Assembly: GCA_902789425.1 (NCBI GenBank)
Contig: CADANX010000002.1
Coordinates: forward strand, 96,316 to 160,315
DNA: 64,000 nt
Direction: 5' to 3'
DNA from: an uncultured Erysipelotrichaceae bacterium
GTDB lineage: Bacteria; Bacillota_I; Bacilli_A; RF39; UBA660
Under the pieces are notes generated by a model. It was not told the DNA's origin. It ran no database searches and saw nothing but the letters and a program-made list of their open reading frames with translations. Each line of letters starts with the position of its first letter. Within the stretch, counting starts at the first letter, position 1. Below, piece by piece: positions 25,668-25,942 of the stretch. The translations under genes were made by a program, and so were the position numbers.

Positions 25668-25766
25668 ATATATGGAGGGTATAGAATGACATTTAAATAT
25701 AACAAACAACATGGTTTAAAAGATTGTGGTGCCTCTTGTTTATATAATATTATAAGGTATTATAAT
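25668..25766 (+). repeat. 99-nt exact direct repeat, copy 1 (SD plus first 27 codons of C39 ABC exporter)
   Basis: Identical nucleotide for nucleotide to 40898-40996, as read directly from the sequence. Confidence 0.95.
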
Positions 25767-25925
25767 GATTTTATAAATCAATTACTTCTTTTTTCACTAA
25801 CTGATACATTATCTATTATTTTTATTTTTATCTATTTATTATTAAATAATTTAAAAGTATTTTTAATTATTTCAATTATATTTTTCTTTAAAATTACATT
25901 TTCTTATGATATAATTATTTTATAG
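25686..25925 (+). pseudogene. chimeric remnant of C39-peptidase ABC exporter gene (duplication junction)
   Basis: Codons 1-27 (MTFKYNKQHGLKDCGASCLYNIIRYYN) are identical to the gene at 40916. They are then joined directly to DFINQLL..., which matches 41641 onward. Homology ends at 25888, where the upstream region of the second giant gene begins. Confidence 0.85.
25907..25915 (+). promoter_or_regulatory. extended -10 promoter element of giant gene copy 2
   Basis: TGATATAAT followed by TATTTTATAGTAGGAGAGTGTA, the same leader/SD cassette as at 10660-10680. ATG at 25943. Confidence 0.55.
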
Positions 25926-25942
25926 TAGGAGAGTGTAGATTT

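Follow-up and report, generated by a model that had tools for sequence, protein, structure and literature searches.

Silent scaffold joins as the probable source of an apparently decaying C39-peptidase exporter and its chimeric remnant in an uncultured Erysipelotrichaceae genome

The window, i.e., the whole 64,000-nt stretch of DNA from an uncultured Erysipelotrichaceae bacterium that was analysed, contains two 15-kb modules (10622–25766 and 25878–40996), each with a giant gene and a partner gene (592 aa in module 1 and 588 aa in module 2). The modules are only about 67% identical, and the strong divergence of these paralogous surroundings had been correctly recognised in an earlier sequence-only reading. 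A remnant of an exporter gene (R) lies between the modules, and the exporter gene itself (E) follows module 2 together with two small peptide genes. Exact repeats common to R and E in the fuller sequence of the same strain measure 206 nt (Rep1), 177 nt (Rep2) and 31 nt. The features are as follows, in window coordinates.

25668–25766, + strand: first 99 nt of Rep1, remnant copy, with the SD and exporter codons 1–27; matches 40898–40996 (complete Rep1 in the fuller assembly, 206 nt)
25767–25865, + strand: last 99 nt of Rep2 (177 nt), remnant copy, with the 35 nt at 25788–25822
25866–25888, + strand: tail of the remnant past a real 9-nt loss, up to the joint; also in contigs L021 and L041
25881–25888: microhomology TTTTTCTT, common to the remnant end and the sequence upstream of giant gene 1
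25889–25942, + strand: promoter and leader of giant gene 2; 79% identity to 10633–10684 upstream of giant gene 1
25686–25925, + strand: 79-codon ORF, a probable product of mis-joining (true remnant ORF, 64 aa)
40898–40996, + strand: first 99 nt of Rep1 before the full exporter; end of the contig from the 588-aa gene side
40916–42808, + strand: C39-peptidase ABC exporter gene; intact 657-aa ORF in four other contigs
40997–41661, + strand: middle contig of the exporter; ends exactly 99 nt into Rep2, start trimmed by 38 nt
41058–41562, + strand: exporter stretch of 505 nt truly deleted from the remnant; flanked by 7-nt direct repeats AATCTTC (41051–41057 and 41563–41569)
41705–41713, + strand: 9 nt TTATTTTTA (codons LLF), truly absent from the remnant; homologues are full length here
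42801–43115, + strand: two double-glycine-leader peptide genes (42801–42941, 46 aa; 42951–43115, 54 aa) that adjoin the exporter in other species

In the letters of the window, the block at 25668–25766 matches 40898–40996 at 99 of 99 nt, and the match breaks off at both ends. The remainder of R aligns without a single mismatch in three pieces, 25767–25787 with 41641–41661, 25823–25865 with 41662–41704, and 25866–25888 with 41714–41736. There are accordingly no substitutions between R and E in 186 nt of the window, and the sole differences are indels of 644, 35 and 9 nt. The 35 nt at 25788–25822 are missing from E, the frame of which changes twice only, at 40996/40997 and 41661/41662, and R appears as an open 79-codon ORF for which an exact look-up returned no record anywhere. 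The sequence-only reading was thus accurate for the nucleotide alignment of the 99-nt block, and it interpreted the letters as a duplication joint at which an exchanged block had been preserved while the downstream exporter decayed.

The apparent lesions of E were compared with an alignment of eight intact exporters; same-genus genomes carry exporters of 652–675 aa with 42–44% identity. The 12 extra residues of the remnant, LFSLTDTLSIIF, which are encoded by the 35 nt, align gap-free with the eight homologues and are found in every intact copy. They are ancestral, as had been proposed, and the converse possibility of an insertion in the remnant can be dismissed. The 9 nt kept downstream are ancestral as well. 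The first lesion is no small slip, since 46 nt are missing at this position, corresponding to 15 conserved C39 residues and 1 nt. Loss of one A from an A-run, hinted at by the orphan bases 40997–40998, was rejected as a cause since the intact homologues have 15 more residues there.

The same strain was located by exact-protein look-ups in ERZ28613037 (scaffold_25, 321 kb), ERZ27280466 (MEGAHIT k141), ERZ1029115 (MEGAHIT k87) and Logan ERR3275113, a run of sample SAMEA5383960 in project PRJEB31266. These four assemblies show 0–1 mismatch in about 36 kb relative to the window, except for five segments that are absent from the window. The other assemblies probably derive from the same reads as the window, so that their independence concerns the software and may not extend to the samples. 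The five segments define the following sites, none of which has a strand.

14993–14994: probable silent join, 78 nt missing; giant gene 1 falsely split
23573–23574: probable silent join, 45 nt missing; giant gene 1 falsely truncated
25766–25767: probable silent scaffold join, 178 nt of the true remnant missing; contig L021 has the extra 178 nt and is otherwise identical
40996–40997: probable silent scaffold join, 46 nt missing (coding for GYISFENLRSKLNTS, plus 1 nt), the false first lesion
41661–41662: probable silent scaffold join, 35 nt missing, the false second lesion

With the five segments restored, E becomes an intact 657-aa ORF, giant gene 1 becomes one 4401-aa ORF, and R extends to 399 nt with a 64-aa ORF, which corresponds to the C39 N-terminus and stops just past a real internal deletion. 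The k141 contig L025 holds 42 of the 46 nt missing at 40996/40997. Giant gene 1 is present in the window as pieces of 1436 and 2850 aa and a short tail, and as a single 4401-aa ORF in three other assemblies; in these fuller assemblies the sortase-like tail is expected to be in frame, which it is not in the window. A decaying pseudogene is not what is observed for E, which is intact with 657 aa in four contigs from four assemblies, with no substitutions relative to the window. The variant junctions of the window were seen in no other assembly compared.

These results alter most of what had been read from the window. The 644-nt skip exists in its letters, but other assemblies carry 178 nt more at 25766/25767 and the real deletion is 505 nt. 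The 35 nt are missing downstream in the window, whereas the downstream gene retains them in the other same-strain assemblies (35 nt more at 41661/41662) and has no frameshift, which means that there is no loss to be dated after the duplication. The limit of 99 nt for the identity is likewise an assembly product, as Rep1 extends over 206 nt.

The positions of the sites relative to the repeats are informative about their cause. R in the window retains positions 1–99 of Rep1 and 79–177 of Rep2, and E retains positions 1–99 of Rep1, with its middle piece ending at position 99 of Rep2. Six of the gap edges relate to the repeats, and four of these are located exactly 99 nt, i.e., k−1, inside Rep1 or Rep2. 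The MEGAHIT contigs end exactly 141 nt (k141) and 87 nt (k87) into Rep1, after both partner genes, and the k141 contig L041, which carries giant gene 2, begins with exactly the last 141 nt of Rep2. The "breakpoints" shift with the k of the assembler, with overhangs of 87, 99 and 141 nt.

A simulation was performed in which k=100 unitigs of the fuller sequence were generated and those below 300 nt were dropped. The remaining unitigs cover 1–11929, 12108–27337, 27346–28048 and 28028 to the end in fuller-sequence coordinates, to be compared with window pieces that run to 11929, from 12108 to 27337, from 27384 to 28048, and from 28084 onwards. Four ends and one start agree to the base, and the pieces that begin at 27384 and 28084 are trimmed at their starts, by 38 and 56 nt. 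The join 25766/25767 is predicted by the simulation, with a contig end at T11929 and the next contig start at T12108. When a co-occurring single-module strain was added to the simulation, unitigs ended no more than 1 nt from where the 45- and 78-nt gaps start, which places these two joins at strain-SNP branch points; the gaps begin at a strain SNP or 99 nt after one. Direct-repeat slippage was rejected for the 78- and 45-nt gaps, as the flanking repeat is at most 1 nt and exact repeats of at least 20 nt are absent from the vicinity.

The gap in the remnant and the 46-nt gap downstream have exactly the same left breakpoint, a coincidence that no simple biological process predicts. The agreement of the right block edge with the first lesion, to which the sequence-only reading had attached importance, is explained by the k−1 overhang of two contigs. 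Gene conversion from the remnant, ending at its junction, was considered for the shared left breakpoints and rejected because neither breakpoint exists in the other assemblies.

Based on these comparisons, the junctions in the window are almost certainly silent mis-joins, and the organism would have an intact exporter and a genuine, longer remnant between two diverged modules. That the junctions might be assembly artefacts had been raised at the outset, and assembly comparison and simulation both bear this out. We infer that reads across the window junctions are absent. The feature as originally described is, as judged from the aligned assemblies, an assembly artefact, and the remnant underlying it is real but ordinary.

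Two biological readings compete with mis-joining. In the first, the deletions are real, and a decaying exporter with two frameshifting deletions is accompanied by a remnant that gene conversion has kept identical over 99 nt and that has retained the lost 35 nt. The letters are as described, the 35 nt are ancestral, and small deletions do occur in AT-rich DNA, but this would require five deletions and zero substitutions in about 36 kb against the other assemblies, with four edges exactly 99 nt from repeat boundaries where assemblies made at other k have 87 and 141 nt. Since the edges are reproduced by simulation and the k of an assembler is unknowable to any biological process, we regard real deletions as most improbable. 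The second reading is that both forms coexist in the sample, a deleted subpopulation and an intact majority, of which each assembler picked one. Rumen samples do hold strain mixtures, and a single-module strain with SNPs is present in sister samples; nevertheless, the k−1 problem is the same, chance would have to have put the junctions exactly at the contig ends that are predicted, and the deleted junctions occur in no other assembly. Coexistence of the two forms is hardly credible on these grounds.

As for the mechanism of mis-joining, the window would represent a scaffolded short-read metagenome assembly built on a de Bruijn graph with k = 100, most likely by idba_ud. Every unique contig would have run k−1 = 99 nt into a repeat of R or E, the repeat-interior unitigs below 300 nt would have been thrown out, and the scaffolder would then have butted or trimmed the flanking contigs with no Ns inserted. 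At the repeat joins, R would have lost 178 nt and E 46 and 35 nt, and two joins at strain-SNP branch points would have shortened giant gene 1 by 78 and 45 nt. The edge of the 99-nt block, the 644-nt skip, the 35 nt found in the remnant only, both frameshifts and the 79-codon ORF could all be products of these joins.

The default maximum k of idba_ud is 100, and successive contigs are joined by the program at an overlap that it estimates but does not verify. This overlap behaviour would account for the two trimmed right-hand edges (38 and 56 nt) and for the zero-gap join over the true 178-nt gap. A literature search for the default maximum k returned only papers in which maxk 100 was set explicitly. 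In the rumen project of these samples, single samples were assembled by idba_ud v1.1.3 with '--pre_correction --min_contig 300' and otherwise defaults, and MEGAHIT, at k values of up to 87, was used for the co-assemblies (PMC6785717). The rumen project also yielded a sister genome of the genus, a 'RUG' MAG labelled uncultured Erysipelotrichaceae, and we infer from the sample names, the label of this sister MAG and the k signature that the window genome was made by idba_ud. The genome contains one N run (14 N), which shows that it was scaffolded. This sole run is located at G000 C7:4943–4956, about 340 nt from a 43-nt segment (C7:4564–4606) with 91% identity to the terminator/leader upstream of the exporter remnant, and the region may be another repeat-related scaffold join.

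Local assembly errors have been reported as prominent for IDBA-UD (PMC7111523). The joins in the window resemble the local assembly errors at scaffold joins described by Chen et al., in that a consensus apparently unmatched by reads appears at repeats and strain-variant sites, and in that N-free joins, false frameshifts, split genes and edges tied to the assembler k are seen. They differ in having been diagnosed without reads, by means of the k−1 geometry, assemblies made at other k, and unitig simulation.

The restored exporter can be compared with C39 bacteriocin-type ABC exporters of the ComA/LagD/SunT type (TIGR01193). The 657-aa product contains Pfam PF03412 (C39), PF00664 (ABC_membrane) and PF00005 (ABC_tran) in one polypeptide, i.e., the same three domains, with the catalytic-Cys motif DCGASC, and two peptide genes are adjacent. 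TIGR01193 is also the best family match, but at 290 bits E scores under the curated cut-off of 523.85, and the peptide leaders in the window strain, KGEG and NGSG, deviate as well; export and cleavage are here predicted from the genes. By architecture only, E would qualify as a distant member of the TIGR01193 type, and the 46- and 54-aa peptides are its likely, predicted substrates. Homologues of the peptide genes adjoin the exporter in 11–12 related loci, where the leaders are canonical (..AGG/GGG). No immunity gene was recognised.

The peptide pair is found 3′ of the exporter in every related locus examined (L010–L018, L042–L044), including a rabbit 'Bacilli' MAG and a Muribaculaceae-labelled MAG, and the peptide cores are conserved (...GIFDG.TR..KC and ...DLGRY.GSS.RR....LC.Y). 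This conserved two-peptide family has no Pfam or NCBIfam model. The 590-aa partner gene does not occur beside the exporter in the loci of other species, which indicates that the exporter is part of a conserved, bacteriocin-like two-peptide locus and not of the giant-gene module. Between the peptide genes and recD2, the 202- and 433-aa genes (43160–45144) gave no Pfam or NCBIfam match, and no homologue of either was found beside the exporter in other species within the 1.5–3 kb flanks examined.

With the joins accounted for, the real remnant can be described. R comprises the first 206 nt of E (including 18 nt upstream of the ATG) followed by 177 and 31 nt that reach to about nt +840 of E. It differs from E at 0 of 399 positions, the robust figure from copy-anchored sequence being 0 of 186. 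The lesions of R are the 505-nt internal deletion between the 7-nt AATCTTC repeats and the 9-nt loss; the letters at the internal junction are …AAATCTTC|CACTTAATT…, and this junction is present in one assembly only, scaffold_25. At about nt +840 of E the remnant is cut and meets the promoter of giant gene 2 at the 8-nt microhomology TTTTTCTT. The tail of R and the joint at 25888/25889 are present in the independent MEGAHIT k141 contig L041, and also in L021, in agreement with the proposal that the exporter fragment marks a joint before giant gene 2.

Both partner genes (592 aa and 588 aa) are followed by Rep1. The flanks of R are 63–79% identical between the modules, with 77–79% in the adjacent non-coding flanks, 63–68% in the genes and 48% at the amino acid level in the partner proteins. 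An identical fragment in strongly diverged flanks, as had been pointed out, is thus a real property of the locus, and it is the 99-nt limit that is artefactual. The left edge of identity at 25668/40898 is sharp (77% to 100%), and rightward the identity continues until homology itself ceases at the joint, which leaves no right edge of a conversion tract to examine.

As a duplication joint, the site has the expected novel junction, with the exporter at about +840 joined to a homologue of the region upstream of giant gene 1. Equal divergence on both sides is not found, R and E having 0 of 399 differences as opposed to 79% identity between the two giant-gene promoters and 63–68% between the genes. 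R is similar to gene fragments left at duplication or insertion joints by microhomology-mediated illegitimate recombination, being a 5′ fragment at an 8-nt-microhomology joint, directly upstream of a second module copy, with later small deletions between 7- and 8–9-nt repeats. Unlike such fragments, it matches its parent gene perfectly despite an identity of only about 67% between the modules, which implies that the modules had probably diverged before the joint brought them together.

An ancient in-situ tandem duplication, with R kept identical to E by repeated gene conversion, is an unlikely explanation. The modules are collinear paralogues (63–79% nt, 48% aa), R and E form direct repeats separated by 15 kb, and at the single informative SNP R has the allele of its own strain, all of which is compatible with this history. 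However, between direct repeats of 206 nt, deletion of module 2 should be favoured over conversion, and strains that lack module 2 and R do exist. Conversion would also tend to copy or erase the 505- and 9-nt deletions of R, and R shows 0 of 399 differences next to non-coding flanks at 77–79%. Because a non-functional R is unchanged from E, an old duplication in situ is not expected.

A comparison with single-module strains had been recommended, and such strains were found, with the exporter intact. The 46-kb scaffold_1553 (ERZ28613036; L034+L039), from another sample, carries a 310-aa gene, a giant gene (4437-aa allele), the 592-aa gene, intact E, the two peptide genes and recD2, with R and module 2 both absent. 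Adjacency of the 592-aa gene and E is seen in two more contigs. Relative to the window strain, the 592-aa gene and E of the single-module strains are 98–100% identical, and the giant gene is a mosaic. When scaffold_1553 is aligned with 10685–23578 of the window, the first ~4.3 kb of the giant gene are 99.4% identical and the central ~8.6 kb 50–87%, and the last ~600 nt together with the 592-aa gene return to 98–100%; the 4437-aa allele has a Laminin_G_3 match. The mosaicism suggests, at the level of sequence, cassette-like allelic exchange.

In the search for a single-module donor of module 2, the 588-aa type turned up in this strain alone. JGI metagenomes were scanned twice, once for the joint and once for the exporter 5′ end, with zero matches, a result attributable to absence of the species from the metagenomes scanned. 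Paralogues of the 590-aa partner gene (27–37% aa) are located at G000 C2:198571–200229 (− strand) and C9:8745–10370 (− strand), and paralogues of the giant-protein C-terminus (46–47% aa) at the contig ends C2:234894–235715 and C9:60388–61209. From these further paralogues, two of them at contig ends, the genome has at least four 'giant protein + partner' modules, which probably break the assembly. The module family is, to judge by sequence comparison, old and multi-copy.

We tentatively consider that R could well be a scar left when an illegitimate or unequal exchange, or an integration, brought an already diverged module between module 1 and E. Homology would have been provided by the exporter 5′ end at one side, and by the 8-nt microhomology at the other. 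It is somewhat less easy to envisage that the module was duplicated recently and that one copy was then replaced by another allele, which we rate as possible but rather unlikely, and any other origin of the joint, an excised circle included, is given little probability.

The assembled order of the modules was also questioned. A chimeric order was rejected, as the assembled order is the only linear topology, with a circle as the sole alternative and one disfavoured by the pair-aware assemblies. In this alternative, module 2 and R form an unintegrated 15.3-kb circle and the chromosome has a single module. Exporter sequence does bound module 2 on both sides, single-module chromosomes are present in sister samples, and the assembly graph fits both layouts, which k-mer content cannot separate. 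Yet two read-pair assemblies (the window and scaffold_25) link the 592-aa gene through R to giant gene 2, the same two link the 588-aa gene to the exporter middle, and the exporter middle contig is only 206 nt from the unique flank of the 588-aa gene, well within insert size. An unintegrated circle is accordingly very improbable.

A public MAG that holds silent joins, deleting 35–178 nt at repeats and strain-variant sites, is a warning. In one 64-kb window, the false features would comprise an exporter pseudogene, a 79-codon chimeric ORF and a three-way split of a 4401-aa surface-protein gene. Readings of gene decay, frameshift or recoding in this genome should first be checked against other assemblies or reads, and the same caution probably applies to sister MAGs of the same pipeline. 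The k−1 test requires no reads and can be reused elsewhere.

With respect to the organism, one- and two-module strains that are 98–100% identical co-occur in the same cattle cohort. It is conceivable, if doubtful, that R acts as a homology arm, and that RecA-type recombination of the 206-nt direct repeats reversibly excises and integrates the 15.3-kb module. If this were true, rumen populations would switch between one and two adhesin modules, with an intact exporter regenerated each time. Otherwise the real biology appears modest: a surface-protein locus that is prone to recombination and has one or two modules depending on the strain, beside an intact two-peptide bacteriocin-like export system.
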